Positions 20,885-35,553 of a DNA stretch of 64,000 bases are shown here, in pieces. How positions within the stretch are numbered: the stretch's first letter is position 1; every line of letters begins with the position of its first letter. The stretch comes from Candidatus Bathyarchaeota archaeon (GTDB taxonomy: Archaea > Thermoproteota > Bathyarchaeia > 40CM-2-53-6): contig CAVTBR010000001.1 in assembly GCA_963733055.1 (NCBI GenBank), positions 896,001 through 960,000 on the forward strand. The letters are read 5' to 3'. Position numbers and translations under genes: made by a program. The notes below the pieces were generated by a model. It worked only from the letters and a program-made list of their open reading frames with translations. It was not told the DNA's origin and made no database searches.

Positions 20885-20933
20885 ACAATTTCTACCTGTG
20901 GCCCCTGGGGGGGCATAGTTTTCTATGGCGCGT
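20885..20933. repeat. Degenerate direct repeat, copy 1 (identical 24-bp core GGGGCATAGTTTTCTATGGCGCGT at 20910-20933)
   Basis: Core identical to 26916-26939; upstream flank also aligns; contains a CATAG-TTTT-CTATG inverted repeat. Confidence 0.9.
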
Positions 20934-26889: not shown

Positions 26890-26939
26890 ACCTTTTCCAC
26901 CAGCGACCCCTTGGAGGGGCATAGTTTTCTATGGCGCGT
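26890..26939. repeat. Degenerate direct repeat, copy 2 (core 26916-26939)
   Basis: 24-bp identity to 20910-20933. Confidence 0.9.
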
Positions 26940-27082: not shown

Positions 27083-27385
27083 ATGGCCCAGAAAACGGCA
27101 ATAGTCACACTGCGCCTCTCACCCCGTGAAGCAAGACGAGTAAGCGCGGTTCAAGCGTTGACGCACCTGGATAAGGCAACACTCCTGAGGGATTTCATCG
27201 AGGACGGGTTGAGGAGGAGAGTCCTAGAATCCTACAGGGAAGGCCACATCACGTCCCAGAGGGCGGCCGATGTACTTGACATTCCCCTACGAGAATTCCT
27301 CAGCCTGCTGGAGAAGAATGGAATAGTTGTCAACTGGGACAGCGACCCAATCCGCGACTACATGACTAAACGCTACGGCGAATAA
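27083..27385 (+). CDS. UPF0175-family antitoxin (RHH + HTH)
   Basis: VTLRL...DKATLLR, Y..G.IT..RAA..L.I....F...L...GI. Confidence 0.85.
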   Translation: MAQKTAIVTLRLSPREARRVSAVQALTHLDKATLLRDFIEDGLRRRVLESYREGHITSQRAADVLDIPLREFLSLLEKNGIVVNWDSDPIRDYMTKRYGE

Positions 27386-27388
27386 CCC

Positions 27389-27928
27389 GTGCCCGCCGTC
27401 GCCGACTCGGGCCCACTAATCCACCTAGCCCAGACAAATCAAATCCACCTGCTCAAACGCATCTTCGGAACAATAATCATCGTCCCCGTCGTTAAGCATG
27501 AAGCGGTGGACCAAGGAGGATTGTACCCTGACGCCAAACTTGTGGCAGACGGATTACAAGAGGGCTACATCACCGTCCGCAGACCCAATAGACAAATTTC
27601 AAACCGAGCCTCAAGACTCGCAAGGCAAGAGAAGATTTCCGAGGCCGACGCACAAACACTCCTCCTAGCCAAAGCCCTGAGAAAACCACTGCTAACAGAC
27701 GAGAAGATTCTTTCGACGCTGGCAAAGATGTACGGCCTTGAAGCCTGGAACACCTGGACGATCCTCTTGGAAGCCTTAAGAACGAAGAATATTGAGAAAC
27801 ACGAAATCCACCAAGCCATTAGCGAACTCGGAGACAGAAGACACAAACTCTCCCCCACCTACACGAAGCAGATCCTTGATGCCGCGGACCGAATCACCGC
27901 ATCGAAGACCAACAACCAAAGCAACTAG
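27389..27928 (+). CDS. PIN-domain toxin (DUF3368-like)
   Basis: VADSGPLIHLA, V..EAV, LLTDEK; paired with the UPF0175 antitoxin. Confidence 0.85.
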   Translation: MPAVADSGPLIHLAQTNQIHLLKRIFGTIIIVPVVKHEAVDQGGLYPDAKLVADGLQEGYITVRRPNRQISNRASRLARQEKISEADAQTLLLAKALRKPLLTDEKILSTLAKMYGLEAWNTWTILLEALRTKNIEKHEIHQAISELGDRRHKLSPTYTKQILDAADRITASKTNNQSN

Positions 27929-28113
27929 CCAACGAAACTTAACCCCGAACAAAACCCACAGCTGAAACGCTAGGGTTTTGAAAATCAAAACGGTTGAGTC
28001 TCTCACTCTCTCTATGCCACCCAAACCTAACCACCCCTTATCCCACCCCTGAACACGGATCAGCCATATTCTGAATCTGTAAACCCCGTAGAGTTGGGAG
28101 TGAACGATAGGAA

Positions 28114-28467
28114 ATGGGACGTGGGAAGTGTAGGAGTTTGCTCCTCCTTACCCAAGAAGAGGCACACCGCCTAACCGACGCCCTAACCCCCTACCACATA
28201 TCAAAAAGCTTCATCATCCAAGAAGCCATCCAGCTCGGATTACAAACCCTAGACCACACAAACATTCCCGGGCCAAGAAGCAGAATACTCCAATTTCGTC
28301 TCCCCGCCAAACTCCACAAGAGGGTAAGAGAACTGGCTCAGGAACGGCACATTAGCCAACAAAGCCTCATCCGATATTTCCTCTTCACATACCTCTCCCA
28401 GTTGGAAAGAAAGAGCACCCCCCTAACAAAAGCCCGAAGCCACAACAGGAGAGGCGGTAGCTGTTGA
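28114..28467 (+). CDS. Tandem ribbon-helix-helix DNA-binding protein
   Basis: Two RHH-like repeats (ISKSFIIQEAI; LQFRLP..L..RVRELA....ISQQSLIR). Confidence 0.65.
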   Translation: MGRGKCRSLLLLTQEEAHRLTDALTPYHISKSFIIQEAIQLGLQTLDHTNIPGPRSRILQFRLPAKLHKRVRELAQERHISQQSLIRYFLFTYLSQLERKSTPLTKARSHNRRGGSC

Positions 28468-28877
28468 AGTTCAGGCATAAATCAAAATGGCAAGAGGCTG
28501 GCCCGATTAGAATCGCAACCTCCGACGAAGACAAACCCGAACACGAGCGGTTGAAGAAGGGAATCATCAAACTCCTCAACAAGTTCGGAGGATACGAACC
28601 CGACCTCGACGATATCTTCGTCGAAGAGATCGCCTCCTCCACCATATACTACAAGAAAATTGAACAATTCCTAGATACCGCCTCCGCAACCGAATACACC
28701 TACGCCAGCATCGCCGACTCTAAACTGAAATGGCAAAAAACCATCCAAACCGCCATGCGCGAACTCGCATTAACTCGCCGCGACCGCCTCGACCAAAAAG
28801 ACCAAACCAACTTCACCCGACAACTTCAGGAAGCCATAGACAAAGCGAAAAAGGCAAAGAAACATTGGGCGATCTAG
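28464..28877 (+). CDS. Putative terminase small subunit (helical hypothetical protein)
   Basis: Size and position directly upstream of, and overlapping, terL; MRELALT..DR resembles the ELGLTP.SR motif of P27-type TerS. Confidence 0.5.
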   Translation: MKFRHKSKWQEAGPIRIATSDEDKPEHERLKKGIIKLLNKFGGYEPDLDDIFVEEIASSTIYYKKIEQFLDTASATEYTYASIADSKLKWQKTIQTAMRELALTRRDRLDQKDQTNFTRQLQEAIDKAKKAKKHWAI

Positions 28878-30202
28878 AGAAAGCCATCCGTGAACTCACC
28901 GAAATCTACCTCCAAGCCCTCACCGACGAAGTTGAGTTCGCTAGGAAGATCCTAGACTTCAACCCCTTCCCCTACCAAGAAGAATTCCTACGCGACCGAT
29001 CCCCGTTGATTGTAGCGTGTTGCGGCAGGCAGGTTGGAAAAACCACCCTAACCGCCATCAAAGCCCTCCACTACGCCCTATCCCAAGACACCACCCGAGT
29101 GCTGATCGTAAGTGCCGGACTAAGACAATCCAAGATATTATTCAACAAAATCCTAGGATACATCGACACCTCCCTACCCCCCAAAGTGTTGACCACCAAG
29201 AAAACCAGCACCCAGGTCAGGTTCGCGAACGGCTCCGAAATAGTAGCCCTACCCTGCGGCCATGATGGGGTAAGCCTCCGCGGCTACACGAGCGACCTCG
29301 CCATAGTCGACGAAGCCAACTTCATGCCCCCCATCGTCATAGACTCCGTCATCAGACCAACAACAATAACCCGACCAGACGCCCGAATCATTATGGTCTC
29401 AACCCCCTGGACCAGAAACCACCCATTCTACGACGCCCTAACCAAACCCGACCAAGGCTTCAAAGCCTACACCTGGCCAAGTTCAATGAACCCGCTAACC
29501 ACAAAGGAGAAACTTGAAGTTGAAAGGAAGACGATTGGAGAGTATGATTTCAACCGCGAATACAACGCCAACTTCCTCGACGACCAATTCAGCTACTTCC
29601 CAAGCAAACTCATCCTAACCTGCACCGACGACTACACCCTCACCGATCAATCCCAAATCAAGTATACACCCAAAGGCAAATACTATGTTGGCATAGATTT
29701 CGGCAAACACGTCGACCACACAGCCATCGCCATAGTAGAAGAACAGAACGACCACTCCCTCCGACTAGTTTACCTCCAAGAACTCCCACTGGAAACCCCC
29801 TACACCACCGCAATAGAAACCATCCACACATTACAAGCCGCCTACCAATTCAGAGGCGGACGCCTCGACCAAACTGGAGTCGGGGAGGCGCCCTTTGAAG
29901 AAATAAGAAAATTCGCCCCAACCATCCAAGGCATCAAATTCACCGCCCCCATCAAAGAAAACATCCTCAGCAAACTACTACTCAAAATGGAACACCACGA
30001 AATCACAATACCCAGAGAACCACAACGCCTCCTCACACAACTAACCCAACAACGCTGCGAACCAACCCAGAGCGGGAACCTGAAGTTCTCGCACCCGGAG
30101 GGAACCCACGACGACCTCGCCTGGGCATTCGCCCTAGCCGTATACGCATACCCAGGAAACCTAGACTGGATGGGCACAGTAATCGGCGTACCCCATTCCT
30201 AG
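28865..30202 (+). CDS. terL: Phage-type terminase large subunit (ATPase + RNase H-like nuclease); ORF open from 28730, likely TTG start 28865
   Basis: PYQ adenine motif, Walker A CGRQVGKTT, LRG, Walker B LAIVDEA, coupling STP, REY.A.F, nuclease VGIDFG, DQTGVG, HDDLAWA. Confidence 0.9.
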   Translation: MGDLEKAIRELTEIYLQALTDEVEFARKILDFNPFPYQEEFLRDRSPLIVACCGRQVGKTTLTAIKALHYALSQDTTRVLIVSAGLRQSKILFNKILGYIDTSLPPKVLTTKKTSTQVRFANGSEIVALPCGHDGVSLRGYTSDLAIVDEANFMPPIVIDSVIRPTTITRPDARIIMVSTPWTRNHPFYDALTKPDQGFKAYTWPSSMNPLTTKEKLEVERKTIGEYDFNREYNANFLDDQFSYFPSKLILTCTDDYTLTDQSQIKYTPKGKYYVGIDFGKHVDHTAIAIVEEQNDHSLRLVYLQELPLETPYTTAIETIHTLQAAYQFRGGRLDQTGVGEAPFEEIRKFAPTIQGIKFTAPIKENILSKLLLKMEHHEITIPREPQRLLTQLTQQRCEPTQSGNLKFSHPEGTHDDLAWAFALAVYAYPGNLDWMGTVIGVPHS

Positions 30203-30278
30203 ACTGAAGACAGAGGAGCATTGGCAAGCAGCGGCGTAAGCGAGAAGCCCCCGGCCCCTTGGCGTAAGAGGAGGCCAC

Positions 30279-30335: not shown

Positions 30336-30632
30336 GTGGCGGCAAGCCAAGTCGTGAAAATAACTTCAAAGGGACAGTTTACGCTTCCAGTTGAAATACG
30401 GAGAGAACTGTCACTGGGCAAAGACAGCCACGTCTATGTTACGAAACTGGGGCGACTCATTGTAATCAAGAAGGTTGAGGAATTGTCCTTGGATGACATC
30501 TCAGCCATCCTCGAACCCCTTGCGAAAAGAAACGGCCTCACGCGCAGGATACTCATGGAAGATATTGAGAAGGCAAGGGAGAAAATGCTTGGAGAGAAAC
30601 AAGGCAAAGCCCACCCCCACCGTTCTCATTGA
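30336..30632 (+). CDS. AbrB/MazE/SpoVT-family antitoxin
   Basis: KITSKGQFTLPVEIRRELSL. Confidence 0.88.
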   Translation: MAASQVVKITSKGQFTLPVEIRRELSLGKDSHVYVTKLGRLIVIKKVEELSLDDISAILEPLAKRNGLTRRILMEDIEKAREKMLGEKQGKAHPHRSH

Positions 30633-31044
30633 CACAAACATCCTCGTTTCCGGCCTAGTATTCCTTGACGGTAATGAGCATCGAATACTCAAACTTGCAG
30701 AAGACAAAGCCATAACCCTCGTCCTACCTGACTTCGTACTGAAAGAAGCGAGGGCCGTCCTAAGCCGCCGCTTCCCAGGCCATGAAATATTCCAAGATGC
30801 GTTTCTTCTGCGAGTGAAGCACACCATAGTTCCTTGGAACCGAATCGAACAAGACATCCCCATCCACCGGAGCGAGGTCAGAGACGCAAAGGACGTAGCA
30901 GTGCTGACCTCGATAATTCTAGCCAAACCCGATTTCGCAATAACAGGAGACAAGACTCTAAGAGAGGACATAAAGCACTGCCACGACGCTCAGACCACAA
31001 CTCTTTGCTCTTCAAATGAACTCCTAAAGAAAATCGCGAAATGA
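30589..31044 (+). CDS. PIN-domain toxin (VapC-like); ORF open from 30475
   Basis: VLIDTNILVSG, L.E, RDAKD..VL, ITGDK. Confidence 0.87.
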   Translation: MERNKAKPTPTVLIDTNILVSGLVFLDGNEHRILKLAEDKAITLVLPDFVLKEARAVLSRRFPGHEIFQDAFLLRVKHTIVPWNRIEQDIPIHRSEVRDAKDVAVLTSIILAKPDFAITGDKTLREDIKHCHDAQTTTLCSSNELLKKIAK

Positions 31045-31125: not shown

Positions 31126-31256
31126 AAGATTCTTCGCGGCGCCGTGGCGATTTCGCGAGAGGATGGCGCCTAGGATTTTCGATACGAAACTTAGTCTGGT
31201 GCAGAAAGCATCTTTAGTTCCAGCGTGAAACTTGAAGAGGAAGGCGCGATCCTCAA
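31126..31256 (-). pseudogene. Collapsed flippase remnant: copy of the wzx 3' end fused to a copy of the wzx start/upstream region (repeat A)
   Basis: 31159-31202 matches 32881-32924 (40/44) and the wzx tail; 31199-31256 matches 35327-35384 (48/58); junction at GTGC microhomology. Confidence 0.8.
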
Positions 31257-32079: not shown

Positions 32080-32129
32080 CGTTTCGGATCCCCTTACAGG
32101 CGCGTTACTTTGCGATGCGGATGGCGCCT
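32080..32129. repeat. Degenerate copy of the wzx 3' end and downstream flank (repeat B)
   Basis: 32100-32129 vs 33759-33788 = 26/30; keeps an in-frame minus-strand stop (TAA in place of TAG). Confidence 0.75.
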
Positions 32130-32197
32130 CTTCTATTTGAACCGGCGAATATCGTCGAGTCAAACAATGCCTTTGAGAGGTATGCCTTTTATGGTGT

Positions 32198-32867: not shown

Positions 32868-32955
32868 GCTACTTTGCGACGAGGATGAGGCCTAGGATTT
32901 TCGAAACGAAACCTAGTCTGGTGCCTAGGAATTTGTGTATGAGTTCAATATCATG
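32868..32955. repeat. 88-bp copy of the wzx 3' end (repeat C)
   Basis: 75/88 identical to 33763-33850 with no indels; 21-bp identical end GTGTATGAGTTCAATATCATG. Confidence 0.92.
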
Positions 32956-33658: not shown

Positions 33659-33763
33659 TGTAGAATCGCTAGCTCAATAGTGAAATAAAATATTTCTATA
33701 TCCAACCATTCACAAGTTTGGTAGAGCTAGGAAGCCGTTTAGGATCTTTCGTAGCGCCGCGCG

Positions 33764-35339
33764 CTACTTAGCGACGAGGATGGCGCCTAGCACTTTCGAA
33801 ACGAAACCCAACCTGGTTCCTAGATATCCGTGTATGAGTTCAATATCATGCTCCTTTACCACCTTCAGCAGCCGAAGGGCTGCTAAGTATATGATTCCGC
33901 CAAGAATTATGTATGCAGGTAGCAGAATTCTACTGTAGAAAACCATCTGTACAAGCACGAGAACTCCCGCCATCATTCCCCCCGCAGCCAAGGTTTTCCA
34001 AAACGTCGTTAGGTCAATGCTTATCGCGTTCTTCCGTTTCAAAACAATGATCCCTAAGAGAACGGAGATGACCATCGCTAGTCCGCGGTGCGATCGAAGC
34101 CCCCGTAATTCCCATGAGTGGCAGGAGTACGTACGCGGAAGCGATTGCTAATAGCGTGGACGCAATCGTGATCAACAGGGCCGTTCGAGTCTGTGATAAC
34201 GCTACTAGCATAATACCTAGAACTGAGCCGTACGCGGTGAGGGCAAAGAAGAATGACAATATCGCAAGAGAGGCGGCTCCGCCGCCATATGCTTGACCCA
34301 CAAATGTAATGAGGGCAACCTTGGCAGTCGCGAGCAAGCCGAACGAGAGAGGAACCATCACTAGACTCGCATAACGTGAAGCCAGCCACGTAGCCCTCCT
34401 GCAGCTCTCAAGCCCGCTCCGCCCATGGATATCGGAGTAGGCGGGAAGAAGGGCACTGTTTACTGAACCAGTAATGCCGGTAAGAACACCAAAGGCTGTC
34501 AAGGAAGCATTGTAGACTCCGAGAGCGGCCAGAGGTACAAACGCTATGAGTATCGCGCGATCGAACCAGCTATACACGAAGCCGATGGCGTTCTCGATGC
34601 TCAGCGGCCAAGAGAAGCTGATCAACTTCCTCACCGAAAAAGACTTCTTGGGCAGACCGAGCACGCGAAGTATCAACGCCGCATAAGCCACGAACATAGC
34701 GAGGTCTGACAAAATCCAGCCAATCACGAGACCAACCAAGTTCCGCATCAAAATAATCAGTAAAACAATCAAGCACTGTCTGAGTATGATACCGGCAGAC
34801 CCGATCGTAGCAGCCTCCTTGAACCGTTTCATTCCGAGTAATGTCCCTATGGCGACGGGGAGAGCGCCTGAGTAGACAAGAACGTCGATAGCCAAGAACC
34901 TGAACAGATCGGCTTGCGCAATTGAGCCAAGTAATCGTGACGCGATCGCGGGTGCGGCTAAGAAAACGACAGCCGTTATCGGAATTGAGAACAGGACAGT
35001 CACGCGAAGCGATTGGTAGAATACGGCTGACGCAGTCTCTCTCGAACCTGATGCTAATTCTCCTATGAATGTCGTCGCCGCCAATGTAAACGCCCCTCCG
35101 TTTAGTGTTTGAGAGAGCGCAATGATGAGGGAAAGAATAGCCAGAATCCCCACTTCGGCGGGTGTAATTAGCCGGGCTAAAATAGCGAATGCTAACGCTT
35201 GTGCGACGCTCGTGATGATTATTTGAATCGTGAGGTATGAGGCGCCGCGTGACACTGAGACTGCAGATGTTATGTTTCTGCTGGACGGACCTACCGGACC
35301 AGGCTGGGGTTCCAGGTTCGGGGTAAGTGCAGAATCCAT
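33764..35339 (-). CDS. wzx: Wzx/MOP-family oligosaccharide flippase, split by a +1 frameshift at ~34087 (ORFs 34014..35384 and 33764..34075)
   Basis: LARL..P.E.G, FSWPL, DR..L, LGVYNA, LLP.MGI.GA; deleting one C gives ...IARGLAMVIS... and a continuous ~524-aa protein. Confidence 0.85.
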
Positions 35340-35553
35340 CTTTGGTCCCAGCGTGAAACATGCAGAGGATGGCGCGGTTGTCAACTCATTATGAGTAGAT
35401 AAATCGTTGCACGCGGCATGACGATATTTGGGATCAACCCGACGCTACAAGGTTAGGAATTATGGGATATTAGCAAATGAGGAGATCCTATGTTTCCTGT
35501 TGGATGATTATGCGAAAAGAGCTATCTTCAAGCTGATAGCATTAGCGCGTAAA

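Follow-up and report, generated by a model that had tools for sequence, protein, structure and literature searches.

Terminases are regarded as a hallmark of tailed viruses, and those found in cellular genomes are routinely read as 'prophage'. Chromosomal elements that package DNA by exploiting viruses, or that interfere with viral packaging, are known as satellites and include Staphylococcus aureus pathogenicity islands (SaPIs), phage-inducible chromosomal islands (PICIs), capsid-forming PICIs (cf-PICIs), and PICI-like elements (PLE), each with a packaging-specificity gene of its own and the ability to use or block the capsids of a helper virus. Satellites are further equipped with an integrase, with replication genes, and with regulators that sense the helper, and of the terminase they usually encode only the small subunit (TerS). 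In archaea, the closest described case is NitKor-E1 of Ca. Nitrosopumilus koreensis AR1, which, in the passages of Krupovic et al. (2019; PMC6563490) that deal with it, combines TerS and the large terminase subunit (TerL) with VapBC, a restriction endonuclease, and an integrase, and is classed as a cryptic integrated element that is 'enigmatic, likely a relic'; the same passages state that terminase has not been identified in non-viral elements. The relevant parts of PMC10848311, PMC11529989, PMC6393860, and bioRxiv 10.64898/2026.08.12.739948 describe complete viruses only, and in the literature covered, with subscription journals and supplements outside its scope, no selected stand-alone archaeal terminase beyond NitKor-E1 was found described. 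The kind of element already known is a viral packaging module kept without its virus. Here, we describe a three-gene terminase cassette at positions 28114-30202 of a 64,000-nucleotide (nt) stretch of archaeal DNA, referred to as the window throughout (G000:C1:896001-960000), from a genome of the class Bathyarchaeia (2.88 Mb in 3 contigs, 96% complete, 5% contamination).

The cassette is intact, conserved, selected, multi-copy, and capsid-less, and it lies in neighbourhoods of toxin-antitoxin (TA) or defence-type genes. The explanation that we tentatively prefer is that it may be a virus-derived cassette kept as a stand-alone, sequence-directed ATPase-nuclease in a conflict role, i.e., in defence, in abortive infection, or as an addictive unit. 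It consists of three overlapping genes on the plus strand, a tandem ribbon-helix-helix (RHH) gene, a TerS-like gene, and terL:

28114..28467, plus strand: tandem RHH (RHH2) protein, 117 amino acids (aa), first gene of the cassette; weak RHH hidden Markov model (HMM) matches and AlphaFold2 (AF2) model
28464..28877, plus strand: small-terminase-like helical protein, 137 aa, overlapping both neighbouring genes; phrog_361, A2 profile, and ESM Atlas
28865..30202, plus strand: TerL, 445 aa, with an N-terminal P-loop ATPase and a C-terminal RNase H-like nuclease; Pfam, phrog_2, and conserved residues

The TTG start of the TerS-like gene shares TTGA with the TGA stop of the RHH gene, giving a 4-nt overlap. 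While the longest TerL open reading frame (ORF) begins at 28730, we placed the start of terL at the TTG codon of 28865, from which terL overlaps the TerS-like gene by 13 nt, because homologues are 439-451 aa long and the public gene call P0001 is 445 aa. The TerS-like gene thus directly precedes and overlaps terL, and relatives are arranged alike.

The product of 28865..30202 is identified by profile matches and conserved residues as an intact, two-domain large terminase. It matches Pfam Terminase_6N with 52.6 bits (cut-off 22) and phrog_2 with E=1.4e-45, and a profile of 12 TerL copies matches gp17 of T4/RB49 over positions 8-435 (E=2e-22) as well as ATPase and nuclease domains of thermophilic phages, with solved nuclease domains 5tge and 5m1f matched at E~1e-22. 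The Terminase_6C match of the window TerL, at 19 bits, falls under the cut-off of 22.6, and the copies in L017 and L018 reach 35-39 bits. Across an alignment of 12 sequences with 24-61% identity, R55-Q56-x-G58-K59-T60, D149-E150, T180, D278, D335, and H415-D416-D417 are the same in every sequence, with S179 and P181 nearly invariant; we take the invariant residues to be the Walker A motif, the Walker B motif, the coupling motif, and the acidic residues of the nuclease. A preliminary description of this DNA had reported three overlapping genes, with junctions at 28464/28467 and 28865/28877, and a TerL with all ATPase and nuclease motifs in place; the ORFs exist as described, and the catalytic residues are indeed invariant across the 12 sequences, under motif names that are our assumption.

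Two unusual forms of TerL were seen elsewhere in the class. The TerL at L025:9229-10698 (G025:C8) carries a zinc-ribbon-like CxxC...CxxC insert of ~25 residues in its nuclease domain, on a contig that stops right after the gene. In a second type, found in L026-L028 (G014:C4, G015:C1:243-245 kb, and G013:C16) and in G004:C16, the ATPase (~315 aa) and the nuclease (~200 aa) are encoded by separate, overlapping ORFs; the near-identical split is kept across several species of the genus, and a weak portal adjoins it in G014 only.

With regard to the two small partners, the RHH gene product matches Pfam RHH_1 and CopG_antitoxin weakly at E~2e-3, under the Pfam cut-offs (18.4 bits for RHH_1, cut-off 20.5), and its AF2 model, based on 8 homologues, comprises two beta-alpha-alpha units (E5-12/H14-27/H31-44 and E57-64/H65-77/H82-100; pLDDT 75). 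Its homologue in L023 matches RHH_1 and RHH_3. Homologues of the RHH gene are located upstream of TerS-like genes in L016-L021 and L023, and L022 encodes a single 227-aa protein in which the tandem RHH is fused to the TerS-like domain, which suggests a functional link between the two proteins. The RHH2 protein is predicted to be a sequence-specific DNA binder and/or an autorepressor.

The TerS-like protein matches phrog_361 (TerS) at E=1e-3, as do 5 of the 14 members of its family at E<=0.01, and it has no match to a Pfam family. The nearest named clusters in the ESM Atlas are of the Terminase_4 small subunit (score 0.91). A TerS-like profile (A2) matches the ORF upstream of TerL in the proviruses L131, L136, L137, and L138 at E-values from 1e-10 to 1e-17; as these four proviruses also carry portal and capsid genes, the cassette appears to be derived from the packaging module of Bathyarchaeia tailed viruses. 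Structural comparison was not discriminating: the AF2 model has four helices (pLDDT 81), and its similarity to the HK97 TerS (8pop), with Z 6.7, a root-mean-square deviation of 3.4 over 88 residues, and rank 34, or with a template modelling (TM) score of ~0.5 and E 1.3 in Foldseek, is at the noise level for helical proteins. Foldseek searches of the PDB and BFVD and a wide VIA-align search returned nothing at E<=0.001, the fold being too generic to place, and the TerS-like profile matched PDB sequences at noise level only. The A2 profile missed the ORFs upstream of TerL in the other two TerL loci of the window genome (own2 and own3) and in the IMG/VR relatives; the partners of a second orphan clade are tied to the TerS-like family only by a weak match to the A3 profile (own2, E=1.4e-3) and by eye. 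We thus assign the protein as TerS-like from its overlap with terL, from phrog_361 and the ESM Atlas, and chiefly from homology to the proviral genes; assembly into a ring and binding of TerL and of a pac site are putative. Two of the proviral homologues (L137:7645-8223 and L138:7436-8035) have two N-terminal hydrophobic segments that resemble membrane spans, and not a DNA-binding domain.

The genome encodes exactly three TerL copies, as identified by the TerL profile among 9,397 ORFs, at C1:924865-926199 (the window copy), 1492674-1494092, and 294673-296106. The other two paralogues are 38-39% identical to the window TerL and 61% identical to each other; each of the three is preceded by an RHH-type and/or a helical partner, and none is then followed by viral genes. 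A TerL match is present, with a patchy distribution, in 14 of the 22 other genomes of the genus. The window TerL falls in a well-supported clade (Shimodaira-Hasegawa-like approximate likelihood ratio test [SH-aLRT] value of 99) that comprises 8 copies and spans 7 genomes of the genus. This clade has diversified down to 46% identity, and all 8 of its copies are without viral neighbours. RHH, TerS-like, and TerL sequences are all present in each of the nine lineage loci with upstream DNA (the window, L016-L021, L023, and, as the fusion, L022). Among 126 proteins flanking 11 orphan loci, none matches a head, packaging, or tail PHROG at 1e-4, and among the first 150 proteins Pfam identified products of housekeeping, TA, and restriction-modification genes.

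Substitution patterns point to purifying selection on TerL. The ratio of nonsynonymous to synonymous substitution rates (dN/dS) is 0.11-0.23 in the 9 TerL pairs, out of 10, for which dS could be computed (0.27-2.0), the pair L022-L023 being saturated, and is 0.17 at a dS of 0.40 between the window TerL and its 88%-identical orthologue in G019:C62. For the partners, dN/dS is 0.16-0.54 (TerS-like) and 0.32-0.53 (RHH); for comparison, QueC of the window and of G013 gives 0.19. Internal stops were found in 3 of 116 class-wide TerL matches. The preliminary description had named, as the outcome that would make the locus a simple provirus remnant, closest homologues in complete proviruses together with relaxed selection; what was found instead is a clade with 8 of 8 copies orphaned and a dN/dS of 0.17. 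The orphan relatives together with the purifying selection argue that the cassette is more than a provirus remnant.

Searches for the remainder of a virus were carried out at several levels. No portal, capsid, or integrase was found between 8 and 50 kb in the window, and a genome-wide family search yielded no match for Phage_portal PF04860, HK97 Phage_capsid PF05065, Mu-like gpT PF10124, SPP1 portal PF05133, or phrog_9232; the lack of genome matches for Portal_Mu PF06074 and phrog_1650 is uninformative, as the controls also matched nowhere. In tblastn searches of the genome with 38 morphogenesis and accessory proteins of related viruses (18, then 20), structural proteins gave nothing better than E=0.003 (a capsid protein), and the other matches were to a generic ABC-ATPase and, at 2e-6, to one protein of unknown type, x544_L032. 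Lineage profiles of Bathyarchaeia (pro)viruses, which drew on 15 portal, 14 capsid, 14 'x398', and 9 scaffold sequences, matched none of the 9,397 ORFs at E<=1. The same approaches recovered portal, scaffold, and capsid genes beside TerL in relatives and IMG/VR contigs. Portal, capsid, scaffold, and tail genes were thus detected neither near the cassette nor elsewhere in the 2.88-Mb genome; a portal-bearing procapsid from the same genome, which forms part of the description of a TerL, is accordingly among the things not found, and this bears on the role of the protein and not on its homology. Six integrase matches are present in the genome, none of them within 60 kb of any TerL copy, and no att-like or direct repeats bracket the cassette. 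Neighbouring genes, as classified by Pfam and PHROGs, include no replication, excision, or helper-responsive regulator gene; the RHH protein is a possible regulator. The statement in the preliminary description that no portal, capsid, or integrase accompanies the cassette thus holds, the family, tblastn, and profile searches of the genome for portal and capsid being empty.

Comparisons between relatives indicate that TerL is stable and that its small partners change far more quickly, by divergence or by exchange. The TerL proteins of L017 and L018 share 79% identity, against 41% for the TerS-like proteins and 28% for the RHH proteins. At the syntenic locus shared by own3 and G019, flanking host genes have 83-86% DNA identity (dS 0.59-0.67) and TerL has 92.6% (dS 0.34); all similarity stops ~160 nt inside the 5' end of TerL, with identity as low as 25% in the RHH-helical partner upstream. 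This break inside the TerL 5' end suggests that the recognition subunit was exchanged together with the N-terminal stretch of TerL, which we infer to be the contact with the recognition partner. For the window copy, DNA similarity to the sister-species orthologue in G019:C62 extends over 28755-30220, ending 18 nt past the TerL stop; a different TA-like pair follows TerL in G019, and a homologue of that pair is located in the window genome near the second TerL copy. In G013 (L016), QueC...TerS-TerL-AbrB-PIN is collinear with the window, as determined by tblastx. Full synteny with G013 at QueC was considered and rejected, as the UDP-glucose dehydrogenases of the two loci are 34% identical and non-orthologous, leaving collinearity only. 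Judged from these alignments, the cassette has sharp edges and sits among shuffling TA cassettes.

TerL relatives at E<=1e-40 were found in 85 of 301 sampled Bathyarchaeia genomes. Sixty loci of the class were fetched, 58 of which have a TerL ORF, and 11 of these 58 have portal and/or capsid homologues. The tandem RHH gene was not detected in any of the 58, proviruses included. In the TerL tree, 23 rows are without a viral neighbour seen and form several well-supported clades nested among viral TerLs, with at least five changes, which points to a repeated origin of orphan TerL clades within the class. Identity is 31-39% for the best IMG/VR relatives and 31-45% for the nearest viral TerL.

A further gene type recurs beside TerL in the class, i.e., a fusion of an ABC-type ATPase and a GNAT acetyltransferase domain of ~480-520 aa in all, which lies directly beside TerL on either side, often overlapping it, in 22 of the 60 loci (L129 among them lies outside the 58) and also in 5 viral contigs:

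L034-L036, L039, L040: ABC-ATPase/GNAT beside TerL in IMG/VR
L121-L125, L129, L132, L134, L139, L142, L143, L145, L148, L149, L152, L154, L159, L160, L162, L170, L177, L179: ABC-ATPase/GNAT beside TerL in Bathyarchaeia

Tail genes were found 4-7 kb upstream in nine of the ABC-ATPase/GNAT loci and in L144 and L151; this survey covered same-strand ORFs of >=260 aa within 7 kb, with 14 of 130 ORFs dropped for size and some contigs ending near TerL.

The cassette is flanked on both sides by TA-type genes on the plus strand:

27083..27928, plus strand: UPF0175 antitoxin-like gene (27083-27385) and weakly PIN-like gene (27389-27928; 20.6 bits, cut-off 27.8); Pfam
30336..31044, plus strand: AbrB/MazE antitoxin (30336-30632) and PIN_3 toxin (ORF 30475-31044, PIN domain from residue 50, E=2e-10); Pfam

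Beyond AbrB/PIN_3, Pfam matches identify RHH-ParE, HicB, and then AbrB-PIN, and the wider surroundings comprise TA pairs, regulators, and glycan genes. TA pairs on both sides had been noted in the preliminary description, and they are there, the upstream toxin being only weakly PIN-like and the downstream one a PIN_3 match at E=2e-10. TA or defence-type genes are located within ~3 kb of the cassette in the window, own2 (ThiF, CHAT), L016, L017, L018, L019 (restriction-modification, integrase), and L020. CHAT-domain and ThiF/E1-like genes are typical parts of conflict systems; those at the second TerL copy (G000:C1:1487876-1492123; L118:1877-6124) are a ThiF/E1-like gene and a CHAT-domain gene that, by eye, appears frameshifted into 459-aa and 75-aa pieces. 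In L019 (G014:C16; 7178-8952 and 14105-14317), an integrase in two overlapping ORFs follows the cassette, two restriction-modification sets flank it, and a 70-aa ORF 3.4 kb away has weak similarity to TerL (E=2.6e-4).

The composition of the locus is also unusual. The coding strand of the cassette has a GC skew of -0.30 and an AT skew of +0.32, and a GC skew <= -0.25 together with an AT skew >= +0.30 occurs in just 1 of the 473 long ORFs of contig C1. This G/T-poor coding strand, an outlier in the genome, spans ~27400-30200 and is common to the cassette and the upstream PIN-like gene; it is weaker or absent in the other two TerL copies and absent in viral relatives. To the right of the cassette, the 3' end of a flippase-like gene (33763-33850) has three further copies to its left with 72-91% identity, one of them joined to a copy of the 5' end of the gene; the repeats are located at 31159-31256, 32106-32144, 32868-32955, 33763-33850, and 35327-35384. 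Two such flippase-end copies enclose each of three units (the RHH-ParE and HicB cassette, the AbrB-PIN cassette, and a GT2 gene), a pattern suggestive of a single hot spot where cassettes were inserted serially or gene ends were duplicated. A dispersed repeat of ~44 nt has 7 copies in the genome (86-100% identity), including those at 20889-20933 and 26908-26939 of the window, and one copy ends at the start of a weak metagenome joint. No tRNA gene was found in the window. Parts of the window are covered by 8 sets of DNA contigs, which come from 6 studies of soil or peat, and four of these sets yielded fragments only; no RNA or virome run was found to contain the window. An empty site proposed from the metagenome joints 26938>32867 (side 23) and 26633>34362 (side 31) was rejected, since both are at repeats and too weak.

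We propose that the packaging module of a Bathyarchaeia head-tail virus may have become detached from its capsid genes and been retained by selection as a chromosomal cassette. The tandem RHH protein would supply sequence-specific DNA recognition, the TerS-like protein would recruit TerL via the variable TerL N-terminus, and TerL would cut and translocate the bound DNA in an ATP-driven manner. Such a cassette might, for instance, act on related tailed viruses by wrongly cutting or packaging the DNA that they are replicating, or by competing with them for their procapsids, and would not be a packaging enzyme for particles of the cell's own. We rank a conflict role first because the cassette behaves genomically like its TA neighbours and is without everything that a satellite needs. 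With somewhat less assurance, the class-wide pattern may be extended to the view that Bathyarchaeia have repeatedly captured terminases as capsid-less, inherited, duplicated, and partner-swapped cassettes, which could represent a new virus-derived conflict system that sabotages the packaging of related viruses or renders the adjoining chromosome transducible in the capsids of whichever relative infects. A number of observations weigh against a conflict role. The 8 proteins of the three cassettes have no meaningful match in PADLOC-DB v2, NCBIfam gave no defence-family match, and TA adjacency is weak evidence, TA genes being very common in these genomes. An intact translocating ATPase is not obviously needed by a defence nuclease and suits real packaging at least equally well. 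The pairing of ABC-ATPase/GNAT with TerL, considered as a defence-style ATPase-nuclease pair, was rejected given the tail genes upstream in 9 loci, which mark this type as viral so that it lends no support to a defence role. The clade member in G021 is broken by one TGA, G004 holds TerL fragments only, and unassembled DNA could hold capsid genes in a genome that is 96% complete with 5% contamination.

The most serious rival, doubtful as we consider it to be, is a helper-dependent hijacker, in which the cassette would act as a pac-like site and its own TerS and TerL would package adjoining DNA (itself, the TA genes, and the glycan island) into the procapsids of infecting tailed viruses, as a minimal satellite or a lateral-transduction-like 'pac island'. 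It is serious because the whole motor is conserved, ATPase and nuclease alike, as expected if packaging persists; fast-diverging or swapped partners also resemble the changes of pac specificity in satellites and phages, related portal-bearing tailed viruses with TerS homologues related to that of the cassette occur in the class, and the cassette is patchy in the genus (14 of 22 other genomes) and found in differing contexts. The integrase beside the cassette in L019 would likewise fit, as NitKor-E1 has one in the passages that describe it (PMC6563490). However, the three copies of the window genome have no integrase within 60 kb, replication or excision genes and flanking att-like repeats were not found, and two loci look inherited in place, given the synteny of own3 and G019 and the collinearity of QueC...TerL-AbrB-PIN with G013; with the nearest viral TerL only 31-45% identical, docking on a foreign portal is hypothetical. 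Unlikely in our judgement is selfish addiction only, in which the TerL nuclease would be a toxin, the RHH protein its restraint, and the TerS-like protein an adaptor between them, in a three-gene TA-like unit that acts by post-segregational killing and has no present link to viruses. An RHH-first operon with 4-nt and 13-nt overlaps is like type II TA operons, and the cassette lies inside a TA array and is multi-copy, patchy, and shuffled like its TA neighbours, but the needs of a toxin are far exceeded by a motor of 445 aa that has two domains and retains all conserved ATPase residues, and the fusion of RHH and TerS-like sequences in some relatives suits a recognition subunit better than a labile antitoxin. 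Provirus debris, i.e., the last genes of three decayed tailed proviruses without present function, matches the published reading of the one comparable archaeal case ('likely a relic' in the NitKor-E1 passages of PMC6563490), and the G021 stop and G004 fragments would fit it; this explanation is very improbable and largely refuted by dN/dS values of 0.11-0.23, invariant catalytic residues and intact frames, by the retention of just these three genes at all nine loci, and by a monophyletic orphan clade diversified to 46% identity with 0 of 126 flank proteins viral structural, so that the sequence evidence speaks for a cassette that is not a simple provirus remnant. Least probable of all is a dispersed, domesticated system like a gene transfer agent (GTA) with capsid genes elsewhere, too divergent or unassembled, for which the 96% completeness of the genome leaves room and against which stand the empty family searches, the tblastn searches with nothing better than E=0.003 for structural proteins, and the four lineage profiles, none of which matches any of the 9,397 ORFs at E<=1. 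Among the three options offered in the preliminary description, a domesticated ATPase-nuclease therefore fits best; a dispersed GTA module lacks a portal or capsid in the genome searches, and a canonical satellite is disfavoured by the distance of more than 60 kb from any integrase for all three copies and by the replication genes not seen among the neighbours.

If repeated capture by Bathyarchaeia is the true reading, the cassette would be the first domesticated terminase described in archaea. If selection does maintain terminase sets in genomes without capsid genes, an ATP-driven motor-nuclease with a swappable recognition subunit would have been put to other use in defence, addiction, or gene transfer, and terminase-based provirus calls in archaeal genomes would overcount viruses. 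The cassette also offers a small three-gene system for how a packaging motor works, or is misused, off the capsid.

Compared with the general properties of satellites, the cassette encodes TerL in addition to TerS, and the integrase, replication, and regulator set was not found. Like type II TA modules with RHH antitoxins, including the adjoining ParD/ParE and VapB/VapC types, it is an RHH-first overlapping operon that is multi-copy and patchy, in a TA array that differs between sister species; unlike them, it has three genes, and the part of the 'toxin' would fall to an ATP-driven motor-nuclease of 445 aa that originates from a virus. With the holoterminases of tailed viruses (gp16/gp17 of T4, and L131 and L136-L138) it shares the two domains and conserved residues of TerL and the overlapping TerS-then-TerL order, and it differs from them in that portal, scaffold, capsid, and tail genes were not found in the genome and in that a tandem RHH gene precedes the pair. 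NitKor-E1, as far as its description in PMC6563490 goes, is similar in its location on an archaeal chromosome, in having TerS directly before TerL with no other tailed-virus gene, and in the adjoining VapBC TA genes, a likeness by description and not by sequence; NitKor-E1 is, however, one isolated case that includes an integrase and a restriction endonuclease, whereas the window cassette occurs in three copies per genome, belongs to an orphan clade that extends across the genus, is under purifying selection, and has a tandem RHH gene but no integrase.

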